From IMG/VR virus record IMGVR_UViG_3300037418_003103: a DNA stretch of 64,000 bases, one strand, 5' to 3'. Made by a program: the position numbers and the translations under genes. The notes under the pieces are model-generated. The model was not told the origin of the DNA, searched no databases, and saw only the letters and a program-made list of their open reading frames with translations. Positions 9,858 through 31,588 of the stretch are shown here, one piece after another (position 1 is the stretch's first letter; every line of letters begins with the position of its first letter). The stretch is from a virus (lineage: Duplodnaviria; Heunggongvirae; Uroviricota; Caudoviricetes).

Positions 9858-10214
9858 TCACAAATATCTAATACATAAATAGTTGATTGTTATATGAAGG
9901 ATATTATCAACAATAATTAAAAGCCAGAATGATAAGAAGGGAGGTGCTGATTCAGGGAATCCAGTCGATGTAAAACACCAATTTTTATACTGACAAACAT
10001 ACTTTGCAAGTCTGAATTTATCAATCAAAAAATGTGTTGAGAAGATCACTGCAAGAGCCATGGGCGACGCTATGAAAACAAACGGAATCGCATATAGAAC
10101 GCAATGGACCAGGCAAGCAAGCCATCCTTCCTTAGTAAAGATAACCTTCTTATTGGCCATCCAATTGTTTTGGGTTATATAATCACCCCAGGCATGAAAA
10201 AGTAGTTGTAACAT
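9858..10214 (-). CDS. DUF3307-like membrane protein
   Basis: H..GDY..Q..WMA..K, H..Y, THFLID, DN..H. Confidence 0.7.
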   Translation of the reverse strand: MLQLLFHAWGDYITQNNWMANKKVIFTKEGWLACLVHCVLYAIPFVFIASPMALAVIFSTHFLIDKFRLAKYVCQYKNWCFTSTGFPESAPPFLSFWLLIIVDNILHITINYLCIRYL

Positions 10215-10253
10215 GCCGTTAATATAACCTTACAAAATAAAAAGTAAACTTTG

Positions 10254-10871
10254 TTACCTTAAATAGACATCACCTAGGACCCTTATTTCACCAAGATAAG
10301 TATCAACGCCAGGCAGTATCGGTGTGTTTGATGCGATTCTATTCTTGTCTATTTCTATGACACCTATATCCTTATTCTTAATATTTTCTTCATGAAATAT
10401 AACTAATCCATGGAAAGCCCTGTCATTAAATTTTGATGAGTTTCTGCTAAGTCTGAGCGCCATTAATGCAGCGTAGTCTGGACGTTTATAAACATCAATA
10501 GTTCTCATGTACTCGGTTAAAACAAAATCTCTACGTTCAGAGTCTTGTATTGTGTTTAAAACACTTATAACCTCATTTTCAGTATTTGATCCATTTATTC
10601 TATTCAATAAATTTAATTCATCATAGATAGCCTCAGCTATTTTCCTGTTTGTTACAAAGGATACACCCATAGATTCAGTACCGCCTAAACCACCTGAGTC
10701 CAACCCTGATTTGGCCAGTAAAACACCACTACTAATAACTTTATGATAATTGGTTGTAACATGATATAAAATTAGAGGTAGGGTTTCTATATTAATCTCG
10801 CTTCTACCATGTACAGATTGTTCGCTTAATAAGTTGCGTAGAGACATGGCCAGAGCTTTTTTAATATCCAT
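10254..10871 (-). CDS. hypothetical protein, possible ART-like fold
   Basis: LYHVT, GVSFV, C-terminal EIRV. Confidence 0.5.
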   Translation of the reverse strand: MDIKKALAMSLRNLLSEQSVHGRSEINIETLPLILYHVTTNYHKVISSGVLLAKSGLDSGGLGGTESMGVSFVTNRKIAEAIYDELNLLNRINGSNTENEVISVLNTIQDSERRDFVLTEYMRTIDVYKRPDYAALMALRLSRNSSKFNDRAFHGLVIFHEENIKNKDIGVIEIDKNRIASNTPILPGVDTYLGEIRVLGDVYLR

Positions 10872-10906
10872 ATAAAAGGAGTTTTCTTAATTATAAATAT
10901 CTAAAA

Positions 10907-11470
10907 TTACACTTTGGCCAGGGAGTGATTACTTATTAAGTAATGACTACCAAATAGAAGTGCAGAAAATACAAGTGTTGATATAAGACTCCATGGATAG
11001 AATGGAAGTCCATCAGCATAACACATCATAAGACCACCCAGTGTTTTTGGTCTACCAAGACCTGCCAGCGGTGAAGTGCTAAGCCAAACTAAGAAGTTAG
11101 AAATAATAAAATAAGTGGTGGGAGCTGCGATAGAGGCAAAAAGTATTCTCTTTACATTAATACCTTTAATAAAGAAGCCAAATACGCACATTGCAGCAAA
11201 TAATAGATAATTGGTTGCTTGGCCCTCATAAAATCCTGGTGTACTACCAATTCCGTTTATAAAAAGCAACTGATACAAGGTATCAGAAATAAACATTGAA
11301 AGAAGTGGTAGGATAAAGGAAAATTTTTTATCTTCTACAATATAACCAGCAAAAATAGCAATCGCTATTTGTGGAGCAAAGCCAAAAGGCCTAGATGGAA
11401 TTATCCTGTATAGTGAGGCAACAAGTATGAGAAGAAGTAGGTTATATACTACTGATTTAGTTGTGTTCAT
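10907..11470 (-). CDS. multi-pass membrane protein, DUF6580/ECF S-component-like
   Basis: R.IP..P..FAP, LPLLSMFISD, FIISNF.VW, CY..GLPF. Confidence 0.6.
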   Translation of the reverse strand: MNTTKSVVYNLLLLILVASLYRIIPSRPFGFAPQIAIAIFAGYIVEDKKFSFILPLLSMFISDTLYQLLFINGIGSTPGFYEGQATNYLLFAAMCVFGFFIKGINVKRILFASIAAPTTYFIISNFLVWLSTSPLAGLGRPKTLGGLMMCYADGLPFYPWSLISTLVFSALLFGSHYLISNHSLAKV

Positions 11471-11553
11471 AATTTAAGACAAATTTACTATAAATCTCTA
11501 GATAGTCAAGTTGATTAAAATATTATTTCTTATCTCAAAAACAATATCGAAAG

Positions 11554-11590
11554 TGGTGTGAGGTGGTCTCGAACCACCGACGACTGGATT
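11554..11590 (-). pseudogene. 3' half of an interrupted tRNA (Phe-like)
   Basis: AA TCCAG TCGTC GGTGG TTCGAGA CCACC TCACACC A: intact T arm and acceptor 3' strand. Confidence 0.75.
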
Positions 11591-12195
11591 TATTTCCTTG
11601 CCTGTTTAGAACAAAAAGTGTCAGTTTGACTATGACAATTAGGGCATAGTATTCTTAAATTACTTACTCTATTATCTGCCCTATCACCATTTATATGGTC
11701 TAATTGTAATACTAACGGTTTACCGTTCCAATTCGGTTCCTGTTGGCATTCATAACACTTATTTTCTAAAAATCCTTCCTCTAGGGCTCTTTTCTTAACT
11801 GTTTTAGTATTATTAGTTTTTGACGGAAAACTAAAAATATCATCTAATGTTAACCTCTTTTGGAAACCATTCTTGGTGCTACTAATACCAAAATCAAATT
11901 TAAGTTCACTCAAATTGATCTCGTATAAGCTAGCATATTTTTCAAGAGTCTGAAAATTACCTGATCTTATTTTAAGACCTAATTTCCTAAGTACCTCACT
12001 CTTTGAGTGACTGTTTTTAACAGCAATAACCAATAGTTGCTTCGTCCAATTAACAGTTTTTTTATACCCAATAGTTTTCAGCTCAAACTTCTTCAAGTAA
12101 TAGCGAACTGTTGAGGGCGATACGCCGAATTCTTTAGCTATTTCTCTTATTGATAGCTTTAGAGATACTAACTTAATTAATTTTTCTTTGTCCAC
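11590..12195 (-). CDS. HNH homing endonuclease with N-terminal HTH, inserted in a tRNA anticodon loop
   Basis: C..C, LQLDHINGD..DN..SNLRILCPNCH. Confidence 0.9.
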   Translation of the reverse strand: MDKEKLIKLVSLKLSIREIAKEFGVSPSTVRYYLKKFELKTIGYKKTVNWTKQLLVIAVKNSHSKSEVLRKLGLKIRSGNFQTLEKYASLYEINLSELKFDFGISSTKNGFQKRLTLDDIFSFPSKTNNTKTVKKRALEEGFLENKCYECQQEPNWNGKPLVLQLDHINGDRADNRVSNLRILCPNCHSQTDTFCSKQARK

Positions 12196-12255
12196 CTATA
12201 TAAATAGGCGGACACGCCATAATTATAACAAATTCCTATAAAGTATTAGAAAATA

Positions 12256-12288
12256 AATCCTTTACTATACCAACTGAGTTATCTATTC
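12256..12288 (-). pseudogene. degenerate 5' half of the interrupted tRNA
   Basis: GAATAGA TA ACTC AGTTGGTA TAGT A AAGGA TT; D-loop intact, acceptor strand no longer complementary. Confidence 0.55.
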
Positions 12289-12507
12289 TTTTTGGTTATC
12301 ATCTTCTTTATACTTAGTGTTTAAATAATGTAGATAGCCAATTTCTTCAGAAGTTAATTCACCAATAAAAAAACTATCTTTAAATTTTTCAGTATTAAAT
12401 ACGTGATATCTCACATTTTTATTCGAAAAGTATTCAACTTCAACAAGTTTGCCTAATTCAATTAATTCGTCTATAAAATATTCATACTGTTCTAAAGCTG
12501 TCATCAT
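12283..12507 (-). CDS. hypothetical protein
   Basis: Start moved to ATG 12507 because the longer ORF overlaps tRNA-Cys. Confidence 0.6.
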   Translation of the reverse strand: MMTALEQYEYFIDELIELGKLVEVEYFSNKNVRYHVFNTEKFKDSFFIGELTSEEIGYLHYLNTKYKEDDNQKE

Positions 12508-12525
12508 AATTTTAATTTTTATTTG

Positions 12526-12596
12526 AATTACATGAGAGATTCGAACTCCCGTGGTGTGGGTTGCAACCACACGCCTAACCACTCGGCCAATGTAAT
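12526..12596 (-). tRNA. tRNA-Cys(GCA)
   Basis: Full cloverleaf ATTACAT/ATGTAAT, U73. Confidence 0.9.
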
Positions 12597-12597
12597 A

Positions 12598-12807
12598 TTA
12601 AGCTTCTTTTATCATTCCAAGGATTTCTCTTGGAGATACAAGAGTACACTTCTCTTGTATCTCCTTTATTCTTCTCTTGGGAATATCGTAGTGATTCTTG
12701 TGAAACCAGCATTTTTTAATCCCAAGCAACTCACCCATTAAATGCAGGTTCTCTATTGAATACGGTATGCATATCAGATGTCTCTGTTTATCACAGAAGT
12801 ACTTCAT
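12598..12807 (-). CDS. DUF4031-like small protein
   Basis: WFH..HYDI; ATGA overlap with upstream stop. Confidence 0.55.
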   Translation of the reverse strand: MKYFCDKQRHLICIPYSIENLHLMGELLGIKKCWFHKNHYDIPKRRIKEIQEKCTLVSPREILGMIKEA

Positions 12808-13013
12808 TTCCATTGCTTCTTTCTGTTGTACTTCCATGTTCTATACTCCCCGTATTTCCATTTTAGAATCTCTTTATTTTTTCTTCTACCTCTTGAACGA
12901 TGGTATATAATACCTTCATCCCAGTAGGGTTCAGACATCCTATCATTGGTTACAATCTTGTATTCTTTCCTACAAGTTGTCTTTTGGCTCACTGAGCCTT
13001 TAAATGGTTTCAT
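12804..13013 (-). CDS. small basic protein, WKxNRKxQWK family (copy 1)
   Basis: C-terminal TWKYNRKKQWK. Confidence 0.7.
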   Translation of the reverse strand: MKPFKGSVSQKTTCRKEYKIVTNDRMSEPYWDEGIIYHRSRGRRKNKEILKWKYGEYRTWKYNRKKQWK

Positions 13014-13030
13014 CAATTAGATTTTTATAT

Positions 13031-13054
13031 CTAATGTTCTGTTACTCTTTTCAT
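13031..13054 (-). promoter_or_regulatory. uORF MKRVTEH* (TAG) with stop in hairpin 13016-13035
   Basis: ATG AAA AGA GTA ACA GAA CAT TAG; 7-bp stem, 6-nt loop; 17 nt to next ATG. Confidence 0.65.
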
Positions 13055-13100
13055 ATTATTTTTTTTTAACCAACAGTATTTAGTTGGCCAATTTTTAATT

Positions 13101-13451
13101 TTATACTATTCCAAATATTAGTAATTTTGCGGGCATTGCAGCAAAATAATCTGCATCATCCATTTTTGATACTGGCACTTCAAATCTTACTATTTCTGCA
13201 TTTATTTCTCCACAATTGATTAAAGTTTGATAATAGGCTACCCCTTTTCTTATCATTGTCAAAGTAGCTTGTGGGTTTTGCTTATAAAGAATTTTCTTTA
13301 TTTCATTTTTTTTGTCAATCTCTTTTTGAATCTTCCAATCATCGAAACCTGGAGGTGGTGGTACAAATCCGCGCATGTTATTTTTAATTTGTTTTTTACT
13401 TTTTTCAGACTGTTCCTCTGTTAAATTAGGAACTAATTCATTTGCTTCCAT
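13101..13451 (-). CDS. hypothetical protein
   Basis: 116-aa ORF. Confidence 0.65.
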   Translation of the reverse strand: MEANELVPNLTEEQSEKSKKQIKNNMRGFVPPPPGFDDWKIQKEIDKKNEIKKILYKQNPQATLTMIRKGVAYYQTLINCGEINAEIVRFEVPVSKMDDADYFAAMPAKLLIFGIV

Positions 13452-13621
13452 TGTGTTTTTCTATTTAATTTCCAATTGATTTTGTGCCTATTATATCTGC
13501 GATATCTATTACAGCCTCTATGAGGTCTACATCTATCACAACCTAATCTATTTCTCAACCAAATTATTCTAAAGGTTCTTGAATCTGTTACTTTTTCTAT
13601 TTCTTTTGTTTTGTATGACAT
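13433..13621 (-). CDS. small basic protein, WKxNRKxQWK family (copy 2, with CxxCxxHxxC)
   Basis: CDRCRPHRGCN; NWKLNRKTQWK. Confidence 0.7.
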   Translation of the reverse strand: MSYKTKEIEKVTDSRTFRIIWLRNRLGCDRCRPHRGCNRYRRYNRHKINWKLNRKTQWKQMN

Positions 13622-13638
13622 TCTGAATTGTTTTTAAT

Positions 13639-13665
13639 TCAGAAGAAGTCGTATTGTTTTTTCAT
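13639..13665 (-). promoter_or_regulatory. uORF MKKQYDFF* (TGA) with stop in hairpin 13621-13644
   Basis: Perfect 9-bp stem TTCTGAATT/AATTCAGAA, 6-nt loop; 17 nt to next ATG. Confidence 0.65.
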
Positions 13666-13684
13666 TTAATTTATATTTTACTTG

Positions 13685-13755
13685 TAGCACCACTAAGATT
13701 CGAACTTAGTCGTCGAAAATCAAAATTTCGCATGCTGCCGTTACATCATGGTGCA
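13685..13755 (-). tRNA. tRNA-Gln(TTG)
   Basis: Cloverleaf with U1-U72 mismatch; loop TT TTG AT. Confidence 0.9.
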
Positions 13756-14239
13756 ATTTTACTCCAAATTCTATTTTCCAGGTCCTTATAAAAGGGTTCA
13801 GGGATCTTTATTCCTCTTGACTCAAAATCCTCTACAATTTCCTGCTTCCTAAAAGTACCTTCAACTACACCATCACTCCAAAGGTTGACATGCAACCCCC
13901 AACTCTTCTTAGCTGTTATTACAGCCCTGGTTATGTTCGGATGGCGGGTAATAACCTCAAATATATCATTACTCTTAAATTCTCCATTATCAAATCTCTT
14001 AAAGGCTTCCTTTCCTGAGAATGAACCAGTTCCTTGTTTGAATCTGTAGTCCAGATTCAGATCACATCCACAAAAGATAAGTAACCCACTTCTATATGAC
14101 TTCAGAAAGAATGAGAACATTTCATTAAAGTTTTCTGAATACTTTCTTATCTTTCTATCTTTTCTTGAACCAATCAGTTTTTTTCTTTCTTCTCTATCCT
14201 GATTGGTTACATTGCGTCCAGCCGTTTCATAATGCTCAT
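13746..14239 (-). CDS. hypothetical protein, probably frameshifted near its start
   Basis: Frame of 13746..14120 stays open to ~14244; nearest ATG (14239) is 1 nt out of frame. Confidence 0.5.
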
Positions 14240-14253
14240 AATTTTAATTTGTC

Positions 14254-14514
14254 TTAGGGTATTATTCCAAGTGATTTTAATTCTTTTTCAATACCTCTTC
14301 CCTCCTTATTGGAGGCGGTACAAAAGCACTGTACCGCCTCAGCTACTGCGACCTCTACATCATCGTCATAAGCCGCAATTGTATTCAGTTTGAACAATGG
14401 TATGTCAACGTCCAAGTAACCCATTCTTTGAGTTGTAATTACTGGCGTTAGGACACTATAGCTCCTTCCAGGAAGATCCATTGTTATATTCATTACTTTA
14501 TTATCATTCTCCAT
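14254..14514 (-). CDS. hypothetical protein, HicB N-terminal-like
   Basis: IP...T.A.D..VE.AV.EAV pattern. Confidence 0.45.
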   Translation of the reverse strand: MENDNKVMNITMDLPGRSYSVLTPVITTQRMGYLDVDIPLFKLNTIAAYDDDVEVAVAEAVQCFCTASNKEGRGIEKELKSLGIIP

Positions 14515-14532
14515 ATTAATAATGTTTCATAA

Positions 14533-14774
14533 TAAATATTAGCAAACGGTGGCAGAGGATAGGCGTGCACTAACGCCTCGTTTTACGTCAAACTTTGCCT
14601 TGCTCAGGCTTGTGGATTCGAACCACAGTCTCCACCGCATATATAGGTGGCATCCTAACCGCTAGACCAAACCTGAATTTAAGATCTGACTAAAGCTTAG
14701 ACGCACACGTGGCTATGGTGGCTCTCCTTCGGCTGATTCAGCAAATTTTTGCTGACACCGTTTATTAATATTTA
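14533..14774 (-). ncRNA. putative ~240-nt structured RNA enclosing a tRNA-like domain
   Basis: 23-nt terminal arms 14752-14774 and 14533-14555 pair at 21/23 positions; internal helices. Confidence 0.6.
14603..14676 (-). tRNA. Glu/Asp-type tRNA body with 9-nt anticodon loop TATATATGC
   Basis: All four stems intact; anticodon not assignable. Confidence 0.7.
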
Positions 14775-14781
14775 AAGAACT

Positions 14782-14858
14782 TGGCGGTTTGGACGGGACT
14801 CGAACCCGTGACCTCCGCCGTGACAGGGCGGCATTCTAACCAACTGAACTACCAAACC
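14782..14858 (-). tRNA. tRNA-Asp(GTC)
   Basis: Canonical cloverleaf, G73, encoded CCA. Confidence 0.95.
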
Positions 14859-14903
14859 TTTTAATCGTTTTTAAAACACGCAGAACGATTCAAAACTGAC
14901 CTG

Positions 14904-14976
14904 AGTTCCCTGCTGGACTTGAACCAGCGACCAATCCCTATTACAGGACTGCTCTAACCAACTGAGCTAAGGGAGC
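14904..14976 (-). tRNA. atypical/pseudo tRNA with abnormal anticodon arm
   Basis: D and T arms canonical; GTCCT GTAATA GGGAT gives a 6-nt (or 8-nt) loop; C2-A71 mismatch. Confidence 0.6.
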
Positions 14977-14982
14977 GTTTTG

Positions 14983-15055
14983 TAGCACGAACGGGAATCG
15001 AACCCGTGACTTCTCCGTGAAAGGGAGACGTCTTAAACCCCTTGACCATCGCGCC
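14983..15055 (-). tRNA. tRNA-Glu(TTC)
   Basis: Canonical cloverleaf. Confidence 0.95.
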
Positions 15056-15067
15056 ATTAATATTTAG

Positions 15068-15141
15068 TAGTCCATGAAGGACTCGAACCCTCAACCTCCT
15101 GATCCGTTATCAGGTGCTCTATCCAGTTGAGCTAATGAACC
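15068..15141 (-). tRNA. tRNA-Arg(ACG) with A33
   Basis: CCTGA TA ACG GA TCAGG; A20 in D loop. Confidence 0.85.
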
Positions 15142-15152
15142 GTTTTTTTTTG

Positions 15153-15224
15153 AGCAGAATATTGGATTCGAACCACACATCCTGATTACAAATCAGGCGC
15201 TCTACCAGCTAAGCTATATTCTGC
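15153..15224 (-). tRNA. tRNA-Thr(TGT), 8/4 fold
   Basis: 8-bp acceptor GCAGAATA/TATTCTGC; T stem G.A + 3 bp; U73. Confidence 0.8.
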
Positions 15225-15231
15225 ATTTGTC

Positions 15232-15249
15232 GGAGACGTGGGGCTCGAA
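15232..15249. repeat. 18-bp direct repeat of 16022-16039 (tRNA-like 3' end)
   Basis: ggagacgtggggctcgaa at both sites, flanking the endonuclease gene. Confidence 0.9.
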
Positions 15250-15284
15250 ACATACTTTTCTTTAATTATTTGGTATTTATTAAT

Positions 15285-15959
15285 ATGAAGCCAAAATACA
15301 CTAATAAAGAATTTGAAGAAGCAACTTCAACCACAGAATTACCTTGCGAATGTTACCAATGTTCAAATACATTTCTTAAAATTAAAAAACATATAACTTT
15401 TGAACTTAAACACAATGTCGGTGAGTGTAAATTTTGCTCACAACAGTGTTTATCTAATTTTAAAAATAAGAAAATTAGTGTTAATTGTTCAAATTGTTCA
15501 AAGACCTTTAAAAAAAACAAACATAGAATGAAATTATCATTAAATCATTTCTGTTCACGCTCATGCTCCGCAACCTATAATAACATTCATAAAACTTACG
15601 GCACTAGAAGGTCAAAATTGGAATGTTGGTTAGAGCAACAACTCACCGCATTATACCCTACCATCCATTTTGATTTCAACAAGAAAACTATTATCAAGTC
15701 TGAGCTAGATATTTACATACCATCATTATCATTAGCATTTGAATTAAACGGTATCTTTCATTACGAACCCATATTCGGCATTAAAAAACTTAACCAAACA
15801 CAGAACAACGATATTTCCAAAAGTAAAGCTTGCTTTGACGCAAAAGTTGACCTTTGTATTATAGATGTTTCATCTCAAAATTATTTCAAAGAACCTTCCA
15901 GTATCAAATTTTTAGATATCATCCGAAAAATTATTGATGACCGCTTGTTAACATCTTAG
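15285..15959 (+). CDS. Zn-finger + PD-(D/E)XK (Vsr/DUF559-like) putative homing endonuclease
   Basis: CxxC and FCS..C repeats; RSKLE, ELDIYIP, AFELNGIFHY. Confidence 0.8.
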   Translation: MKPKYTNKEFEEATSTTELPCECYQCSNTFLKIKKHITFELKHNVGECKFCSQQCLSNFKNKKISVNCSNCSKTFKKNKHRMKLSLNHFCSRSCSATYNNIHKTYGTRRSKLECWLEQQLTALYPTIHFDFNKKTIIKSELDIYIPSLSLAFELNGIFHYEPIFGIKKLNQTQNNDISKSKACFDAKVDLCIIDVSSQNYFKEPSSIKFLDIIRKIIDDRLLTS

Positions 15960-16019
15960 CCGCTATAAAAATAACGTTACCAGCAAACACCTCTTGGCGG
16001 TGGGTTAACTTAGTTTGCC
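15947..16019 (-). ncRNA. HDV-like (theta) self-cleaving ribozyme
   Basis: P1 GGCAAAC/GTTTGCT (G.U at site), P2 GTTAAC/GTTAAC, P3 ACC/GGT, L3 GCCAAGA, P1.1 CC/GG, P4 CGTTAT/ATAGCG, J4/2 GCTAA. Confidence 0.75.
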
Positions 16020-16094
16020 TAGGAGACGTGGGGCTCGAACCCACCTGACCTGATACCCTTCCGACACGGTATAAGCGTGAGGGGATAGACTCCA
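16020..16094 (-). tRNA. D-armless tRNA-like RNA with Ile(TAT) anticodon loop
   Basis: CACG CT TAT AC CGTG; T arm GTGGG TTCGAGC CCCAC; acceptor GGAGTC/GTCTCC; A73. Confidence 0.6.
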
Positions 16095-16105
16095 ATTTTT
16101 AATAG

Positions 16106-16178
16106 AGCGAAGTGTCAGATTCGAACTGCATCCCCTGGTTGGAAGCCAAGTACTTTAAGCCATTAAGCTACACCTCGC
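16106..16178 (-). tRNA. tRNA-Gly(TCC), 8/4 fold
   Basis: 8-bp acceptor GCGAGGTG/CACTTCGC; T stem G.A + 3 bp; U73. Confidence 0.8.
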
Positions 16179-16184
16179 AATTTG

Positions 16185-16258
16185 TGGTCCCTGCTGGATT
16201 CGAACCAGCGGCCCTTGGTTTGTAATACCAATGCTCTAACCAACTGAGCTAAAGGACT
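16185..16258 (-). tRNA. tRNA-Val(TAC)
   Basis: Cloverleaf; A1-C72 mismatch; A32. Confidence 0.9.
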
Positions 16259-16259
16259 A

Positions 16260-16298
16260 TGGAGCCGAGAGGCAGCATCCCTGCCTGTTCAACTCGGC
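16260..16298 (-). ncRNA. CCA-ended tRNA minihelix-like RNA
   Basis: GCCGAG TTGAAC AGGCAG GGATG CTGCCT CTCGGC T CCA. Confidence 0.5.
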
Positions 16299-16315
16299 AT
16301 ATACTCTTTATAATT

Positions 16316-16519
16316 TTATTCAAAATAATCTGTCGCAATAACCAACTCATCTAATTTCTTTTTACTAACCTTCTTTGCTATTATCTTAAGATCATACTCT
16401 TCCCACCTAATTTGTGCTTTACGAATTGCTTCCTCTTCTGATTCGGCAAGAGTATAACAATACATTGGTGTTTTTGCTCCTTTCATTATAGGTATAAATA
16501 CAAAATATAATTCATTCAT
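16316..16519 (-). CDS. hypothetical protein
   Basis: 67-aa ORF, AESEEEA motif. Confidence 0.65.
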   Translation of the reverse strand: MNELYFVFIPIMKGAKTPMYCYTLAESEEEAIRKAQIRWEEYDLKIIAKKVSKKKLDELVIATDYFE

Positions 16520-16534
16520 TTGTTAATTTTTTTG

Positions 16535-16608
16535 TGGAGTAGGCGAGCATCAAACTCGCTACCTCCTGCATGCAAAGCAGGTGCTCTATCCAACTGAGCT
16601 TCTACCCC
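16535..16608 (-). tRNA. tRNA-Ala(TGC)
   Basis: G3.U70, A73. Confidence 0.92.
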
Positions 16609-16626
16609 ATTTAATTCTTTTCTTTG

Positions 16627-16699
16627 TAGCCTTGAATGGATTCGAACCATTATCCTCGGCTTAGAAGGTCGATGCTCTGGTCCATTGAGCTACAAAGCT
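16627..16699 (-). tRNA. tRNA-Arg(TCT)
   Basis: Cloverleaf, one A.C mismatch in anticodon stem. Confidence 0.9.
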
Positions 16700-16737
16700 A
16701 TTGTTGCACGAAAATAGTGTATTTAGCTAAATATACT

Positions 16738-17010
16738 TTATTTAAAGTATATTTTATAATTTTTAATTGGGTTGTCGGTTAATTTGTTAGTACTTTCCAA
16801 ATACCATCCAATATCATACGTTTCGCTATCTATATTACTAATTTCTATTTTCATACCATCCTTTTTCAATTTTTCAATAGTTTCTGCTGAAACAAAACAC
16901 TCAAATAATGTTACATAGTTTAACTTATTTTCTGGGTTATAGGTGGTATTATGTATTAATGTTATAATATCTTCATACGTTTTTTCATGAAACTTTCCCA
17001 ATTCTGTCAT
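16738..17010 (-). CDS. hypothetical protein
   Basis: 90-aa ORF between tRNAs. Confidence 0.65.
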   Translation of the reverse strand: MTELGKFHEKTYEDIITLIHNTTYNPENKLNYVTLFECFVSAETIEKLKKDGMKIEISNIDSETYDIGWYLESTNKLTDNPIKNYKIYFK

Positions 17011-17027
17011 AATTTTTAATTTTTTAG

Positions 17028-17100
17028 CGCGCAGTCAAGGAATCGAACCTTGTCCATGCTAGGTTTTGGAGACCTGCCGCATACCATTATGCTACCACGC
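17028..17100 (-). tRNA. tRNA-Trp(CCA)
   Basis: CT CCA AA loop, G73; bulged anticodon stem. Confidence 0.85.
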
Positions 17101-17103
17101 ATT

Positions 17104-17292
17104 TTATTTTTCGTATTCAAACAACTTAACAAAAATCAGAACCCTCCCTCTTTCTCTTTCAAATCTAAGCTCCGCTTTATCATCAACATCTTTCGCCTTC
17201 TTTAAGTACTTATCGTATATCTGATCAAAGTCCTTATTAAAATCCTTTTCTTTCTCACTCCCTAACTTCCTGTAACGCTCTGTGTTTTCCAT
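17104..17292 (-). CDS. hypothetical protein
   Basis: 62-aa ORF, first gene after the attenuator. Confidence 0.6.
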   Translation of the reverse strand: MENTERYRKLGSEKEKDFNKDFDQIYDKYLKKAKDVDDKAELRFERERGRVLIFVKLFEYEK

Positions 17293-17296
17293 ATTA

Positions 17297-17325
17297 ATAA
17301 AAAACCCCCGATTTTGTCGGGGGCT
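17297..17325 (-). terminator. intrinsic terminator/attenuator ahead of the tRNA array
   Basis: AGCCCCCGA CAAAA TCGGGGGTT TTTT. Confidence 0.85.
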
Positions 17326-17346
17326 ATCTAAGTTACTTTTATATTT

Positions 17347-17445
17347 TTAAAAATATTCAGTATCATACATAACACACCCCAATTCAATGTCTTCGCATTG
17401 TGCCCAATTAAATCGTATCCCTGTTTCTATGACTACTTGTCTCAT
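17347..17445 (-). CDS. putative leader peptide MRQVVIETGIRFNWAQCEDIELGCVMYDTEYF
   Basis: 32-codon ORF between promoter and terminator; codons match array anticodons. Confidence 0.75.
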   Translation of the reverse strand: MRQVVIETGIRFNWAQCEDIELGCVMYDTEYF

Positions 17446-17475
17446 TATTATTATGTTTTAACTTTCTTTGTCATT

Positions 17476-17519
17476 ATAAATATAATGCAAATATACTAAA
17501 AGTAATTATTACAACCAAC
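17476..17519 (-). promoter_or_regulatory. promoter(s) of the tRNA array
   Basis: GTTG(17516-17519)-N20-TATATTTG(17488-17495), plus ATATTTAT at 17476-17483. Confidence 0.7.
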
Positions 17520-17533
17520 TTTTTTATTTTTTT

Positions 17534-18172
17534 TTAAACATCAAGCTGTGAAGTGATGCTTATACTAAAAAGATAGGTATTATTTGTTTCATTAAATCCA
17601 TCTAAATAAGCGTTGATATGGGAAACATATCCGCCTGGATTACCTTCAACTCCATGACTATTGTAATTTAATTCTTTCGCAAACTCTTTAGGATTACCAG
17701 AAATACTACTAGGTATCTGAAGTTTAAATTCCATTGTTGATCCTTCCTCTGACTCAGAAACCTTAAGAGTATTCTTTAAGATATATTTACCATAAGGCTC
17801 TATGGAATGATAAGCATCATCCAAATATTGAGCTGATCGTTTTTCTGAAATGTAAGGAGGTAACTCTGCATCGTCCCATCCAAGCTCAAATGAAGCAACC
17901 TTTATTGCTTCTTGTCTTAACCTCTCAGCACCTTCTTTATCTCCTAGATTAAATTGGGCCTTTCCTTTATCGTACAACTCAATAGCTTTCCTTTCGGCTT
18001 CTTTATTTGAACCATGATCACCATCGGTTGGATCTGTTTCGCTATAAAGACTAGTTTCTAATATATCATCAGGTCTCTTAATTTTATTAAAATTATCTTT
18101 AAAAGATTCTATGATAGCCTTCTGTTTTTGCCTCAATATTAGTTTCTTTTCCTTATTTGTAAGTATTTTCAT
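17534..18172 (-). CDS. hypothetical late protein
   Basis: 212-aa ORF behind ATATTTAT. Confidence 0.7.
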   Translation of the reverse strand: MKILTNKEKKLILRQKQKAIIESFKDNFNKIKRPDDILETSLYSETDPTDGDHGSNKEAERKAIELYDKGKAQFNLGDKEGAERLRQEAIKVASFELGWDDAELPPYISEKRSAQYLDDAYHSIEPYGKYILKNTLKVSESEEGSTMEFKLQIPSSISGNPKEFAKELNYNSHGVEGNPGGYVSHINAYLDGFNETNNTYLFSISITSQLDV

Positions 18173-18233
18173 TTAGAGGTTGTTTTATTATAAATATAAG
18201 CATAAATATAAATGTTAACTTATACAACACTCA

Positions 18234-18407
18234 TTAAATGTCAAGTTTTAGTTGTTTAAATTTAGATTTCTTTTGTTTTTTATTCTCAGCATTAACTATC
18301 TCAGTATACTTAATGCATAATTTGTATATTGCATCATACAGGTCTGTTTTGATTTCTGTATCCCTTAATTCATGCTTTGCAAGTGCTGTAAAATCTTCTG
18401 GTTTCAT
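18234..18407 (-). CDS. hypothetical protein (57 aa, below ORF-track cutoff)
   Basis: MKPEDFTALAKHELRD...; fills gap 5 nt after the methylase stop. Confidence 0.6.
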   Translation of the reverse strand: MKPEDFTALAKHELRDTEIKTDLYDAIYKLCIKYTEIVNAENKKQKKSKFKQLKLDI

Positions 18408-18412
18408 ATACT

Positions 18413-19183
18413 TTATTTTAATTCCTTTGTAAATGGCTCAAGTCCTATTAATTTTCTATTTTCTTCAACTCTGTTAAGACCAACTTCAAAAGAATGCGGA
18501 TCATTCTCCATGCAAATCCAGCCTCTCTTTAAATTATCACAAGCCACTGCGATGGTAAATGAACCAGCGCAATTATCCAAGACAACCTCCCCTTCATTTG
18601 TGTACGTTTTTATAATATATTCACATAACTTAACTGGTTTTTGTGTGGAGTGAAGATTTAATTTTTGTCTATCAGACGGAAATTGAAGGACACTAATTGG
18701 ATATCGTTCAGTTGAATCATAAGTTGTGTAATTACCGTATTCACCATAAATTTCCCCTTGTGGCGTATTCCTCTTATGGTGAGCCGTTGAAACCTTTCTC
18801 TTATGACCATGTGTTTTGATGTAATTATATGTTGGTAAATGCTTATAGAAAACAAGAATGTTCTCATGTGCCTTCATTGGCGCCTTTTTGGCATTTAAAT
18901 GGCCAGTGGGTCGTGTTTTTTGCCAAATCCATTCATACCTAAGCATCTCTAGATTACTGGCTCCAAGAACCTTGTCAAACGGCGTTTGAGCAAAGAGACA
19001 AATAGCCCCATCATCCTTAATTACACGTTTATATTGCTTCCATAATTTTTCTAAGTCTATTATTGAATCCCATTTGCAATGTGTTGTTCCATATGGCAAA
19101 TCAGCGAATATTAAATCAACGCTCTTGTCAGGTATTTTATTCATCTCAATTAAGCAATCTCCGAAATAAGCCTTGTTAATCAT
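18413..19183 (-). CDS. DNA N6-adenine/N4-cytosine methyltransferase (beta class)
   Basis: DLPY, H.TQKP, VLDNCAGS. Confidence 0.9.
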   Translation of the reverse strand: MINKAYFGDCLIEMNKIPDKSVDLIFADLPYGTTHCKWDSIIDLEKLWKQYKRVIKDDGAICLFAQTPFDKVLGASNLEMLRYEWIWQKTRPTGHLNAKKAPMKAHENILVFYKHLPTYNYIKTHGHKRKVSTAHHKRNTPQGEIYGEYGNYTTYDSTERYPISVLQFPSDRQKLNLHSTQKPVKLCEYIIKTYTNEGEVVLDNCAGSFTIAVACDNLKRGWICMENDPHSFEVGLNRVEENRKLIGLEPFTKELK

Positions 19184-19186
19184 TAA

Positions 19187-20032
19187 TTATTTACTTGTTT
19201 TGTCGTTTAAATTTAGATATCTAATAGCAGGCGGTATCGGTGGAGCAGGTGCTTGGGTACCTTGTATTGAAGTCTTTACATTGCTTTTTATGTCTCCTTC
19301 TTTTAATGGCTCAGATTTATTAGGGCATAGATCTTCACCAAAGAAAGATGAAAACATGTTGCTAGCTTTATCTACCCAGTCAGTAATTTTTGTTATAAAA
19401 ATTGGTGACGAAAGATCACGATGACGTCTACTCAATTCAATATCCACCATAGTTTCTAAATTTATAAGATTTGATGAGTTAAGTATAACACTATCAGCCA
19501 CAATTGAGTCCTGTTCGGTTTCTGATAAGTGATTCCCCTGGTATGGATTATCAGGCCTACGTATCTCCCAAATTTCACCTCCAAGTTCTTTAACAGCATC
19601 AGATTCATGACGAAACCTAATATCAGATAGTAGTAGTTTCATGTCAGGAGTTAACTTTATTTGTTTCTCATACCATAATTTAAAACGCTGAACCCAAATC
19701 TTTCGTCCAAAAGGAAATTCACCCTCTTTTAAATGATTCTGTATATCAAATTGAAACAGGTCAGTTCCAACAATTTCCATTGCTCTCCTAGGAGACAATC
19801 CCCACCTAGGATCAACTGTTTCTTTCTGTTCCTGGGTTCCCCATAGTTGTTCCCTACTGAAGTCAAATATATGTACCATTGCTTCCTTCATTGGATCTCC
19901 GAAGGCATACTCTTGGTAACCATATTTACTAATAAGGTATTTAGCCGTGGTAGATTTACCAGAAAATTTTCGTCCTTTGATGCCTATTATTTTCATTCTA
20001 TTTAATTTTTTCATTGGGTATTTTATCAACAA
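19187..20032 (-). CDS. deoxynucleoside monophosphate kinase
   Basis: G.K.SGKST P-loop, PR..ME..GTD, SDIRF..E, H.SE; true start probably ~19996. Confidence 0.85.
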   Translation of the reverse strand: MLIKYPMKKLNRMKIIGIKGRKFSGKSTTAKYLISKYGYQEYAFGDPMKEAMVHIFDFSREQLWGTQEQKETVDPRWGLSPRRAMEIVGTDLFQFDIQNHLKEGEFPFGRKIWVQRFKLWYEKQIKLTPDMKLLLSDIRFRHESDAVKELGGEIWEIRRPDNPYQGNHLSETEQDSIVADSVILNSSNLINLETMVDIELSRRHRDLSSPIFITKITDWVDKASNMFSSFFGEDLCPNKSEPLKEGDIKSNVKTSIQGTQAPAPPIPPAIRYLNLNDKTSK

Positions 20033-29080: not shown

Positions 29081-31588
29081 TTATTCTTTAGAAATAACCG
29101 AGCCTGAACCTTTTTTAGTTTTAACAACCCCATCTACAGCTCCGCCGCTACACTTTCCATTCTGTGCCTCTTTATTGTTATTCAATTTTGTGCAATTATC
29201 TATTTCAACAAAGCTTCCTTTAGGATACTGAGTCTTAACCTGGGCTTGTGTTTTTCTAATCTTTTTAAACTTGCCTTCTCTTCCAATTCCTGGAAGTGCA
29301 TTTGCATCGTATGGTCCGCTTGAGCCACCATTAGCGGCTGAACCAGCAACAGGACCTTCTTTAAGTATGCTGCCTAATTCATCTTCGGGATAGAGGCTTT
29401 TTTTAATTACGCTAGTACTAGACATTGGTGCAGTAAACGGTCCACTTGAACCACCTGTTGACGCACCACCTGCAACAGTAGTTTCGTTCACACCTCCAAA
29501 ATACTCGGATAAAATTCGAACAATTTCCTTTGACTTATCATAAAGATTGATCAGCTCATTCTTTAAAGCCTCATCAATTTTTACAATTGGATCTCCTTCA
29601 TTAAATGATTTTATACCCTCTCCAACAGGAAGAAATTCGATCCTATCATTAATGTAATTCTGCAATACAAAACCGTCTATTTTAAAATCAGAATAAATGT
29701 CATCACTATGCTCATATCTATTTGCATAATCCTCAAAATCAGCATGAGATAAATCAGCATAATCAAACACGTATAACTGATTTGATTTATCCTTGACTAA
29801 AGCTATATCACCATTAAACACTATAACTTTAAAAACTATATTTTTTGGTATCTTAGCAGCTATTTCTGGATACTCTTGTGCATTCCATGGTGATGACTGA
29901 TCATTTTCTGTCCCAGGCGGATAATTGCTTTCATATTCTTCTATTTCTTGCTTTGGATGGCTCATTAAAACTTGTCCGTTCGGATCTTTAAATCTATTGC
30001 CACTCTTAGGTTCCTGCATGAATTTAACGACGCTATCTTCAACCGCCTTAACGGCCTCTTCTGGTTTTTTAAAAAATTTGCCTTTTAACTTGGTGGCCAA
30101 TTTATAAGCTCCTGCAGGAAGTGCAATGAGTAATCCCATGCCTGTCAAAAATTGTGATAAATCGCCCCATGTAATACCATTTCTTCTCCAGAAACTATCC
30201 AGTCCAGCCTGTGAAGGATTGTTATATATATCATGTATCAATTTCAAAACTGCCTGATGTAATTCAGGGCTAAATATATCCTCATTCAATTTAGACTTTA
30301 CTGATTCTTTAATAGGCATGATAAGCCTATTGTACTGTTCTACAGTGATTCTATATTTTTTATTAAGCTTCATTTCCTTCAGTAATTTTGCTTGATGTTC
30401 ATTTATTTTTATCTTTCTCATAGCGCCTTTTTTATTTTTTGCATTATTTCCTTTAGACTCTCTTACCTTAGTCAAAGCATAATCCTTATCTACATTATCG
30501 CTCCCGCCTAGTTTAGCAATATTCCGCATTTTATTGCCACTAATTATTATATTTTCGTGAATTGATTCTTGGCTGTTATTTTTAGATGAACTAATTTGTT
30601 TTATTTGACTTGAATCGAACACAATGAATTCTTTTTCATTGTTGCCCATATCTGAAATGATACCATCATATCCTTCGTTGCTAAGTATTTTATGTGCTTC
30701 ATCTGAATTAAGGCCGTCTCTTAAGTCATATAGCTCCCCAAGGCCAATCTCATCATTAATAAATTCTAAAGCGTCTTCATCCTTCATCGTTTGGCCAAAT
30801 AATATCTGAACTATAACGCCAGCTTGCTCTTTCTTAGTAAAAATAGATCTAAGTCTTAGATCAATAGGTTTTCTCATTAAGATATATGCCGCAATAACAC
30901 GACCGCCAAATTGATCAGTATTTTCTTTTTTATCTGAAAAGAAAATACCATGGATAGTATTATCATATCCTGTATTACTACCTTTTTTATTTAAATCAAA
31001 ATCATTGAATTCAGCATTTGTTGCGTGATAAACTATAATCGGATTTCCTTTACTATCTACTATTTTATTTCCGTCTGCTGCAGTGAATCCTTTAACGACG
31101 CTTTTTGTCTGCTCACCATGCATGGATTCTGATTTAATCGATTGGCTATTCTTACTCACTAACTTAACTTGTGATGGTTCAAAAATAACAGTCTGAAATG
31201 CAGGATATTTAGCCATTACTGAGTCAAAACCTTGTTCTTTCAAAAATTTAATGTCCTCAGCATTAATATGCTCTACTTCGATTTTTTTACCAGTATATGG
31301 ATTGGTTACATCGCTTACATATGTTCTATTGTCTATTATAAATGGCTTTCTAATATCAAGATATGCTTGGTACTTATTCTTACCATATTGCATCTGTGGA
31401 GGCGCTTCATGAAAATATATACCGCGATTAGTTAGTGAATGCTTTCTTGTGTATCCTTCACTATCTTGTCCTTTCATCTCTGAAAAATCTCCATCGGATG
31501 AATGATAAAAAATCTTTGGCCTTCCATCAAGTTTCAACATAGGTCTAAACCCATTATGTTCTATCTCTTTAAGCTGCTTTTGTACCAT
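29081..31588 (-). CDS. large protein with two ART-PolyVal-like ADP-ribosyltransferase domains
   Basis: Twice YH(S/A)..., GI(Y/F)F, Y(L/I)...KP, G(F/Y)D(S/G), (I/V)F..SQ(V/I)K. Confidence 0.65.
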   Translation of the reverse strand: MVQKQLKEIEHNGFRPMLKLDGRPKIFYHSSDGDFSEMKGQDSEGYTRKHSLTNRGIYFHEAPPQMQYGKNKYQAYLDIRKPFIIDNRTYVSDVTNPYTGKKIEVEHINAEDIKFLKEQGFDSVMAKYPAFQTVIFEPSQVKLVSKNSQSIKSESMHGEQTKSVVKGFTAADGNKIVDSKGNPIIVYHATNAEFNDFDLNKKGSNTGYDNTIHGIFFSDKKENTDQFGGRVIAAYILMRKPIDLRLRSIFTKKEQAGVIVQILFGQTMKDEDALEFINDEIGLGELYDLRDGLNSDEAHKILSNEGYDGIISDMGNNEKEFIVFDSSQIKQISSSKNNSQESIHENIIISGNKMRNIAKLGGSDNVDKDYALTKVRESKGNNAKNKKGAMRKIKINEHQAKLLKEMKLNKKYRITVEQYNRLIMPIKESVKSKLNEDIFSPELHQAVLKLIHDIYNNPSQAGLDSFWRRNGITWGDLSQFLTGMGLLIALPAGAYKLATKLKGKFFKKPEEAVKAVEDSVVKFMQEPKSGNRFKDPNGQVLMSHPKQEIEEYESNYPPGTENDQSSPWNAQEYPEIAAKIPKNIVFKVIVFNGDIALVKDKSNQLYVFDYADLSHADFEDYANRYEHSDDIYSDFKIDGFVLQNYINDRIEFLPVGEGIKSFNEGDPIVKIDEALKNELINLYDKSKEIVRILSEYFGGVNETTVAGGASTGGSSGPFTAPMSSTSVIKKSLYPEDELGSILKEGPVAGSAANGGSSGPYDANALPGIGREGKFKKIRKTQAQVKTQYPKGSFVEIDNCTKLNNNKEAQNGKCSGGAVDGVVKTKKGSGSVISKE

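Follow-up and report, generated by a model that had tools for sequence, protein, structure and literature searches.

Two small basic proteins, P1 and P2, are encoded within an array of transfer RNA (tRNA) genes in a stretch of 64,000 nucleotides (nt) of a Caudoviricetes virus, IMG/VR record IMGVR_UViG_3300037418_003103, the whole of which is here called the window. Both proteins carry the C-terminal motif WKxNRKxQWK, and both genes are preceded on the minus strand by a mini open reading frame (ORF) opening with ATG-AAA, uORF1 before P1 and uORF2 before P2 (Table 1). The stop codon of each mini-ORF, TAG in uORF1 and TGA in uORF2, falls within the 5′ arm of a hairpin whose 6-nt loop is A-rich. 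The 3′ arm reaches the initiation region of the gene: the last base of hairpin 2 is the A of the P2 ATG, and hairpin 1 ends 2 nt before the P1 ATG. This arrangement had been described in a sequence-only reading of the window, and every detail given there is recovered here. The same reading had stressed a distance of exactly 17 nt between leader stop and ATG, which holds for both window cassettes but is not a rule of the family, where the spacing runs from 14 to 29 nt and is most often 16 or 28. Its suggestion that architecture is conserved though the stems differ agrees with the situation in relatives, in which stem sequences vary freely, with compensatory changes. The unit of leader ORF, hairpin and gene, referred to as a cassette, is considered below together with its relatives, which are denoted by locus labels (L005, L011 and so on).

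Hairpin 2 has a folding energy of -10.8 kcal/mol (z = -4.1 against shuffled sequence) and is matched by the covariance model R1 described below (29.8 bits, E = 3e-4). Hairpin 1, at -4.1 kcal/mol (z = -0.6), alone does not go beyond shuffled sequence and is accepted as real because it is conserved with compensatory changes in relatives. In L005, for example, it reads ATTAGGT / ACCTAAT, a compensatory A-T to G-C change. The leaders of that locus are likewise recognizable orthologs: uORF2 corresponds to MKKQFDFF-TGA, with the tRNA-Gln-to-uORF arrangement kept, and uORF1 to MKKVTRH-TAG, which overlaps the 3′ end of P2 in a different frame. A scan of the whole window for the leader-hairpin design found just these two sites outside long ORFs and three further matches within long ORFs; the same scan on shuffled sequences gave 0–2 matches. 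Rfam covariance models (cmscan, E up to 1) applied to window positions 10000–20000 returned tRNAs, a near-match to a hepatitis delta virus (HDV)-like ribozyme and chance matches, none of them at 13000–13700. Intrinsic termination was ruled out as the role of the hairpins, which are without a T-run, and a terminator scan finds none on the minus strand there.

Profile searching of 1.84 billion representative sequences yielded 123 clusters of the family, nearly all of 31–123 amino acids (aa) and none in a known family, whereas word-indexed searches found two relatives of P2 and six matches for P1, one of which was P1 itself. The relatives reside on uncultured viral contigs of IMG/VR of up to 322 kb; the P1 sequence itself is recorded on a 345-kb contig. 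No match to P1 or P0007 was obtained by tblastn against 50,697 GenBank phage records, and blastn of the window region gave tRNA-sized or short matches only. The comparison rests on 66 distinct loci with E < 1e-8 to the family profile, comprising 52 unique elements. A mini-ORF ending 14–29 nt before the gene start is found in 62 of the 66 loci, and in 42 of the 52 unique elements it has exactly eight codons. The consensus of these 42 leaders is MKKx[F/Y]Dxx, to which uORF2 conforms, with Met1 and Lys2 invariant and Lys3 and Asp6 each present in 38. Phe, Tyr or Leu prevail at position 5, Met, Phe or Asn at position 7, and Tyr, Leu or His at position 8. The codon at position 6 is NAY without exception (Asp 38, Tyr 3, Asn 1). 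Both conserved residues vary synonymously (Lys3 AAA 21 and AAG 17; Asp6 GAC 21 and GAT 17), which argues that the leader is translated and its peptide under selection. Pairing with the main start offers no explanation for Asp6, since this residue is retained whether the gene begins with ATGTCA, ATGAAA or ATGAGT.

The four loci scored as leaderless by automatic detection are instructive. In L011 the contig end falls inside the leader, and L075 has a 15-codon leader variant ending ...DDFYV-TAA. In L029 and L090 the ATG of the P1-type gene shares nucleotides with the stop of the P2-type paralog before it, which has a leader and hairpin of its own. An intermediate arrangement occurs in L005 and L057, where the leader ATG overlaps the 3′ end of the preceding paralog. 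Production of a leader-P fusion by readthrough, frameshifting or gene-60-like bypass was ruled out: the leader-to-gene spacing modulo 3 is mixed (0 in 3, 1 in 30 and 2 in 19 of 52 cassettes), take-off and landing codons are generally unmatched, and stops lie in between.

In minimum-energy folds the leader stop is fully paired in 45 of 52 cassettes. Searched against 430 kb of phage tRNA-array DNA, the covariance model R1, built from eight equal-length elements, gave 47 matches; all clear ones lie before a family gene, and the few other rows are weak or incomplete. In the alignment derived from R1, 98.3% of cells pair and changes on both sides are seen at all eight pairs, although these counts come from an alignment fitted to the model structure, which inflates pairing. 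The covariation score is 0.562 against 0.173 for shuffled data, and registers slid by 1–3 columns pair in 27–51% of cells. The exchange of TAG for TGA is matched by that of CTA for TCA in the 3′ arm, which is plain in ungapped raw alignments. The loops (3–9 nt) are A-rich, commonly ATAAAA, ATAAAC or AAACAA, and only loosely conserved in sequence and length. In 39 of 49 elements the first base of the helix is +17 to +22 from the leader AUG, just past the expected footprint of a ribosome initiating there, and in 41 of 49 the helix ends at most 3 nt from the main ATG.

Start-site accessibility was estimated as the cost of opening positions -12 to +12 around the start codon. In the window the leader starts cost 0.5 (uORF2) and 1.2 (uORF1) kcal/mol, below at least 98% of long-ORF starts, these background starts being first ATGs of long ORFs and thus maybe not true starts. 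The main starts cost 9.6 (P2) and 5.8 (P1) kcal/mol. Across the family the medians are 3.3 kcal/mol for leader starts and 10.6 kcal/mol for main starts, the main start being the costlier of the two in 50 of 51 cassettes.

We consider it probable, at about 60%, that the cassettes are gates of obligatory translational coupling, each controlling one small basic protein from an orphan family. In a host that initiates without Shine-Dalgarno (SD) pairing, ribosomes would load at the open, A-rich leader start; the main start codon, enclosed by the 3′ arm or adjoining it, would be poorly accessible, and direct initiation there disfavoured. Because the leader terminates within the 5′ arm, translating it to its end would unwind the whole stem; as estimated from published footprints, once the stop occupies the A site the 5′ arm and loop would lie in the mRNA channel, leaving the 3′ arm and AUG unpaired. 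Once released, the ribosome, or its 30S subunit alone, would re-initiate at the AUG 14–29 nt downstream before the stem re-forms. The earlier claim that a ribosome at the uORF stop would melt the hairpin thus fits well with the helix covering the downstream start and with the geometry, covariation and accessibility. Coupling is further suggested by the leaderless genes, which start over the stop of an upstream paralog. Since a gene end replaces the leader in L029 and L090 and the leader overlaps a paralog in L005 and L057, what is conserved appears to be the delivery of a terminating ribosome.

The proposed mechanism also suits the likely host. The window (32.8% GC) has an SD-like motif before only 1 of 53 long ORFs and encodes a protein with an SprB repeat, and two family relatives are in metagenome-assembled genome bins labelled Bacteroidota or Bacteroidetes. 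Its DNA was found in DNA sequencing runs of rhizosphere and soil metagenomes, with no RNA run among those listed. The source is therefore probably a very large uncultured phage of a Bacteroidota-like bacterium that does not use SD pairing. In Flavobacterium johnsoniae, it is the structure of the mRNA and A residues upstream of the start that tune initiation, and not SD pairing (PMC6847099, PMC7797042). Because initiation in Bacteroidia depends on structure in this way, the hairpin should act as an effective gate. The family is not confined to phages of SD-free hosts, as L090 has AGGAGG 5 nt before its overlapping P1-type start (2823–2880).

Termination followed by re-initiation through a start-occluding structure is familiar from synthetic bicistronic designs and from MS2-type structural coupling. 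The cassettes resemble these systems in that a short upstream ORF ends 14–29 nt before a structure-masked start, that the helicase activity of the translating ribosome would open the structure, and that a real gene end can substitute for the leader. They differ from known couplers in having a dedicated, conserved 8-codon leader and peptide, in being tied to one protein family and to tRNA arrays, in their SD-free setting and in the strong bias of the leader stop towards TAG and TGA.

Several points weigh against obligatory coupling. A purely constitutive coupler does not account for the conserved peptide, with its Asp6 and its aromatic or hydrophobic positions 7 and 8, or for the near-absence of TAA among leader stops. 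Hairpin 1 of the window is weak, and the P1 main start, at 5.8 kcal/mol, is close to the background median of 5.2 kcal/mol. The inflated pair counts and the uncertain background starts mentioned above further soften the structural case, and re-initiation as the route, like translation of the leader, is deduced from sequence.

Because coupling leaves the peptide and the NAY codon at position 6 unexplained, attenuation and autoregulation are retained as rivals. In the ermC, cat and cmlA leaders, a stalling leader peptide is combined with a hairpin that hides a ribosome-binding site. By analogy, a ribosome stalled at leader codons 6–8 could hold the 5′ arm and so leave the main start open to another ribosome; such a stall would result from shortage or cleavage of NAY-reading tRNAs or from the nascent peptide, and P would be induced by decoding trouble. 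The invariable NAY codon, conservation of the peptide at the amino-acid level and the Tyr or His at position 8 in 26 of 42 leaders are in line with such a mechanism, and published footprints suggest that with codon 6 in the A site the ribosome would shield the 5′ arm, while about 15 nt before the main AUG would stay free. Like the known attenuators, the cassettes have a short leader with a conserved peptide and a hairpin over the initiation region. Unlike them, they have the leader stop within the stem, so that each finished round of leader translation would open it; they have no SD to hide, a shorter leader (8 codons) and a context that suggests no inducer. Tandem regulatory codons are absent save for Lys-Lys at positions 2–3, where a stall would not open the stem; sensing of tRNA-Lys shortage is accordingly unlikely, as a ribosome at these codons stops short of the helix onset. 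Moreover, position 8 lies in the stem, where the NAT pattern may reflect the conserved ATTAG arm, and replacement of the leader by a real gene 3′ end in L029 and L090 fits coupling better than sensing. We therefore regard attenuation as possible, though unlikely.

A related proposal is that the cassette senses the state of termination itself: Asp at position -3 from the stop, followed by aromatic or hydrophobic side chains at -2 and -1, would act with the TAG or TGA stop to prolong dwelling, and P output would report on stop or NAY decoding. P would then be a translation- or tRNA-associated phage factor of a new type, produced from a tRNA-processed mini-mRNA. This we consider rather doubtful.

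More specifically, it had been proposed from the window that the TAG cassette senses shortage of release factor 1 (RF1) and the TGA cassette shortage of release factor 2 (RF2) through dwelling at the stop, the products being rescue or termination factors of the ArfA, BrfA or ArfT kind. Single-release-factor stops do dominate: leader stops are TAG in 37, TGA in 16 and TAA in 4 of 57 cassettes, whereas TAA ends 36 of the 53 long ORFs of the window (68%); the binomial tail for this scarcity of TAA, computed for 3/56, is 6e-23. Two paralogs with different leader stops occur both in the window and in L005. The simplest reason for the avoidance of TAA, however, is that the G of TAG or TGA provides a G-C pair in AT-rich stems, though selection for a slowly read leader stop may also play a part. 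Comparison across relatives speaks clearly against paired sensors. Stop identity changed at least 11 times on a protein tree of 52 tips, six of these changes being forced by well-supported branches, which is close to the mean of 14.8 for shuffled stops. The sisters L068 (TGA) and L081 (TAG) differ, with matching changes in the 3′ arm, and L063 (TGA) and L073 (TAG) differ in stop yet share the leader peptide MKKTDDFY. TAA, a stop common to both release factors, ends the leaders of L088 and L075 and that of the second cassette in both L025 and L057. Counting 3 kb to either side, most contigs carry a single cassette, and where pairs exist they are TGA and TAG (window, L005), TAG and TAA (L057), TGA and TAA (L025), or a gated gene with an overlapping paralog. 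Scoring homologs for uORF, stop identity and spacing, which had been put forward as a check of the sensor idea, thus upholds the leader and hairpin and shows the stop to be labile and the spacing variable.

The rescue-factor identity fares no better. P1 and P2 found nothing significant, and no ArfA match, in Pfam (E up to 1), PHROGs and NCBIfam; a search of PDB profiles with the family gave a lone chance homeobox match (E = 0.64). An AlphaFold2 model of P1 (predicted local distance difference test score 78, predicted template modelling score 0.42) contains short helices only. In fold searches, Foldseek against the PDB (E up to 10) returned nothing, VIA-align found no chain with Z ≥ 2 among 48,161, and the ESM Atlas gave sub-threshold, unrelated rows only. 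ArfA-type factors are made from truncated non-stop mRNA, and only when trans-translation fails. P1 and P2, by contrast, end at ordinary stops (TGA and TAG, respectively), unlike arfA and brfA. ArfA, BrfA and ArfT are release-factor-dependent ribosome rescue factors (PMC8012679, PMC6881298). The P proteins are like them in their small size, basic composition and positive charge at the C-terminal end, and the genomic context suggests a link to translation; the C-terminus is predicted to be helical, similar in kind to SmpB and ArfB tails (PMC8012679). They are unlike them in lacking sequence or profile similarity, in the ordinary stops of the window genes and in a control element that lies 5′ of the gene and not within its 3′ end. 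A few relatives have a P ORF without its own stop before a tRNA gene, as described below, which would suit a rescue factor. On balance, RF1/RF2 sensing with rescue products is very unlikely; the earlier proposal is partly supported, in that the gate appears real and RF specificity and rescue function are unsupported.

Stop codons could also matter as part of a code or suppression switch, in which a suppressor tRNA reads through the leader TAG or TGA and the ribosome crosses the main start in another frame, turning P off late. Reassignment of TAG and TGA is documented in phages (PMC10879173), a near-threshold HDV-like ribozyme match lies in the window array, and tRNAs with anticodon CTA, called 'Pyl' by ARAGORN and of the amber-suppressor type, occur no more than 3 kb from the cassette in L025 (427–499), L073 (3636–3708) and L081 (4917–4989). 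Some such phages may therefore reassign TAG. In the window, however, ARAGORN finds no suppressor tRNA and the long ORFs are intact under the standard code; L025 has the CTA tRNA but cassettes ending in TGA and TAA, and readthrough of uORF1 meets a TAA two codons on. Such a switch is extremely unlikely.

P1 and P2 are paralogous and can be aligned over their full length within the wider family, whose consensus is M-S-K-N-R-N-R-A-K-L-N-K-A...R-E-Y-[KR]-I...P-P-Y-W-D-E-G...Y-Q-V-R-M-Y-R-T-W-K-H-N-R-K-T-Q-W-K. Conservation is strongest in the C-terminal 18 residues, with the tail YRTWKHNRKTQWK. P1 has the core KEYKIV...PYWDEG and the C-terminus YRTWKYNRKKQWK, and P2 has a CxxCxPHxGC knuckle and ends in WKLNRKTQWK; in P2-type members generally this knuckle takes the place of PPYWDEG. 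A third, longer type (CxxC ... SWKLxSKNxKQW) surfaced through the RNA model search. Composition, the aromatic-basic tail and the constant place among tRNA genes are the only basis for a guess at function, and on these grounds P is most likely a nucleic-acid-binding factor, binding RNA, tRNA or ribosomes.

The tail raises the possibility of autogenous repression, in which P would bind its own leader hairpin through the basic, Trp-containing C-terminus and lock the start, possibly in addition to coupling. Precedents are the MS2 coat protein, which represses at the replicase operator, and the arginine-rich peptide of lambda N, which binds boxB; in the lambda N peptide, which ends ...KQAQWKAAN, the Trp is stacked onto the loop of boxB, a likeness that serves as a lead, not as a test. 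The RNA element and the protein family are always inherited together, the tail is the most conserved part of the protein and the loops are short and A-rich. Yet stems vary freely and loops are loosely conserved, while the tail is nearly invariant, and autogenous repression is accordingly held to be improbable.

Individual members depart from the usual gene structure. In L022 (2955–3675) the P gene is without a stop and is fused in frame to a downstream HNH endonuclease gene, giving a 236-aa ORF; its relative L087 ends ...YKPLK. In L054 (428–474) and L070 (2939–2985) the main start is ATA, against ATG in the close relative L064, with leader and hairpin intact, which may mean that re-initiating ribosomes tolerate a non-AUG codon or that the gene is decaying.

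The location in a tRNA array, which the earlier reading had pointed out for the window, proves to be a family trait: of the 52 loci scanned, 45 have same-strand tRNA genes within 3 kb. The leader begins no more than 30 nt (typically 12–18 nt) after a tRNA in 20 of 52 cassettes, and in 18 of 52 the gene ends at most 30 nt before the next same-strand tRNA, the flanking species being varied (Gln, His, Trp, Ile, Ser, Ala, Cys, Leu). Given such short gaps, end-processing of the tRNAs would set free a mini-mRNA about 300 nt long, with hardly any untranslated sequence at either end. This recalls the tRNA punctuation of animal mitochondrial transcripts, in that leader and gene ends hug tRNAs in many cassettes; it differs in that many cassettes, including both window cassettes on their downstream side, have longer gaps or neighbouring genes. 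As a minority variant found in at least two separate clades, a P ORF without its own stop enters tRNA-Ser(GCT) and gains 5–20 residues (L019 3215–3234, L063 3185–3225, L081 near 3194 and probably L073). If RNase P cuts at the 5′ end of this tRNA-Ser, the P mRNA of these relatives would lack a stop codon.

Table 1. Features of the two window cassettes and their immediate surroundings (window positions)
Feature	Position	Strand	Description	Evidence or remark
tRNA-Gln(UUG)	13684..13755	(-)	3′ end 18 nt upstream of uORF2 start	ARAGORN; Rfam tRNA 49.8 bits
uORF2	13639..13665	(-)	8 codons, MKKQYDFF, stop TGA (13641-13639)	
Hairpin 2	13621..13644	(-)	9-bp stem TTCTGAATT / AATTCAGAA, loop AAAAAC	
P2	13433..13621	(-)	62 aa, isoelectric point 11.2	homologs P0001, P0002 at 78-89% identity
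116-aa ORF	13101..13451	(-)	between P2 and P1	ATG overlaps P2 3′ end by 19 nt
uORF1	13031..13054	(-)	ATGAAAAGAGTAACAGAACATTAG, 7 codons, MKRVTEH, stop TAG (13033-13031)	
Hairpin 1	13016..13035	(-)	7-bp stem ATTAGAT / ATCTAAT, loop ATAAAA	
P1	12804..13013	(-)	69 aa, isoelectric point 10.2	
DUF4031 gene	12598..12807	(-)		Pfam PF13223, E = 4.9e-8
tRNA-Cys(GCA)	12525..12596	(-)	closes local stretch of array	ARAGORN, Rfam

The genes around the two cassettes are closely packed. The TAG stop of P2 lies within the 116-aa ORF, which has no family match in Pfam, PHROGs or NCBIfam; a similar ORF sits after P2 in L011, and it is missing from L005, where P1 follows P2 directly. The TGA stop of P1 overlaps the ATG of the DUF4031 gene (ATGA), and in L005 (2705–2923) a DUF4031 gene likewise lies 3′ of P1 with stop and start overlapping. 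Since the overlap recurs in both, translation of DUF4031 is probably coupled to that of P1. A 5-bp, G+C-containing hairpin (CCAAC...GTTGG) with A/T runs beside it lies at 13070–13087, between the 116-aa ORF and uORF1; it is called terminator-like on the plus strand only and could be a processing or stability element of the P1 cassette.

ARAGORN finds 13 tRNA genes in the window, all on one strand. At 14602–14676 (minus strand) it reports an odd 'tRNA-Tyr' with anticodon ATA, and at 14903–14976 (minus strand) a tRNA-like gene with a 2-nt anticodon, which scores 46.9 bits with the Rfam tRNA model. About 85 nt downstream of tRNA-Gly, inside the array, the full-length match to the HDV-like ribozyme RF02682 spans 15947–16019 (minus strand; 38.9 bits, E = 1.8e-4), under the gathering score of 44. 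HDV-like 'theta' ribozymes are known to adjoin phage tRNAs (PMC10879173). The window also encodes HNH homing-endonuclease genes, a 969-aa ORF (60941–63850) with an SprB repeat, a motif of Bacteroidota gliding adhesins, and an 835-aa ORF (29081–31588, minus strand) with an ART-PolyVal ADP-ribosyltransferase domain; the majority of its remaining large ORFs are without a Pfam or PHROG match.

The cassettes represent a previously undescribed and well conserved cis-regulatory RNA and leader-peptide motif, on which no paper was found in a literature search. The probable type of control, translational coupling, is known, and its attachment to an orphan protein family is new. The idea of paired RF1 and RF2 sensors fails on comparison across relatives, and what is left is a natural example of start-site control where SD pairing is unused. 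The motif is tied to a family of small basic proteins that occurs almost only in the tRNA arrays of large uncultured phages, and P may act on tRNAs or ribosomes during infection.

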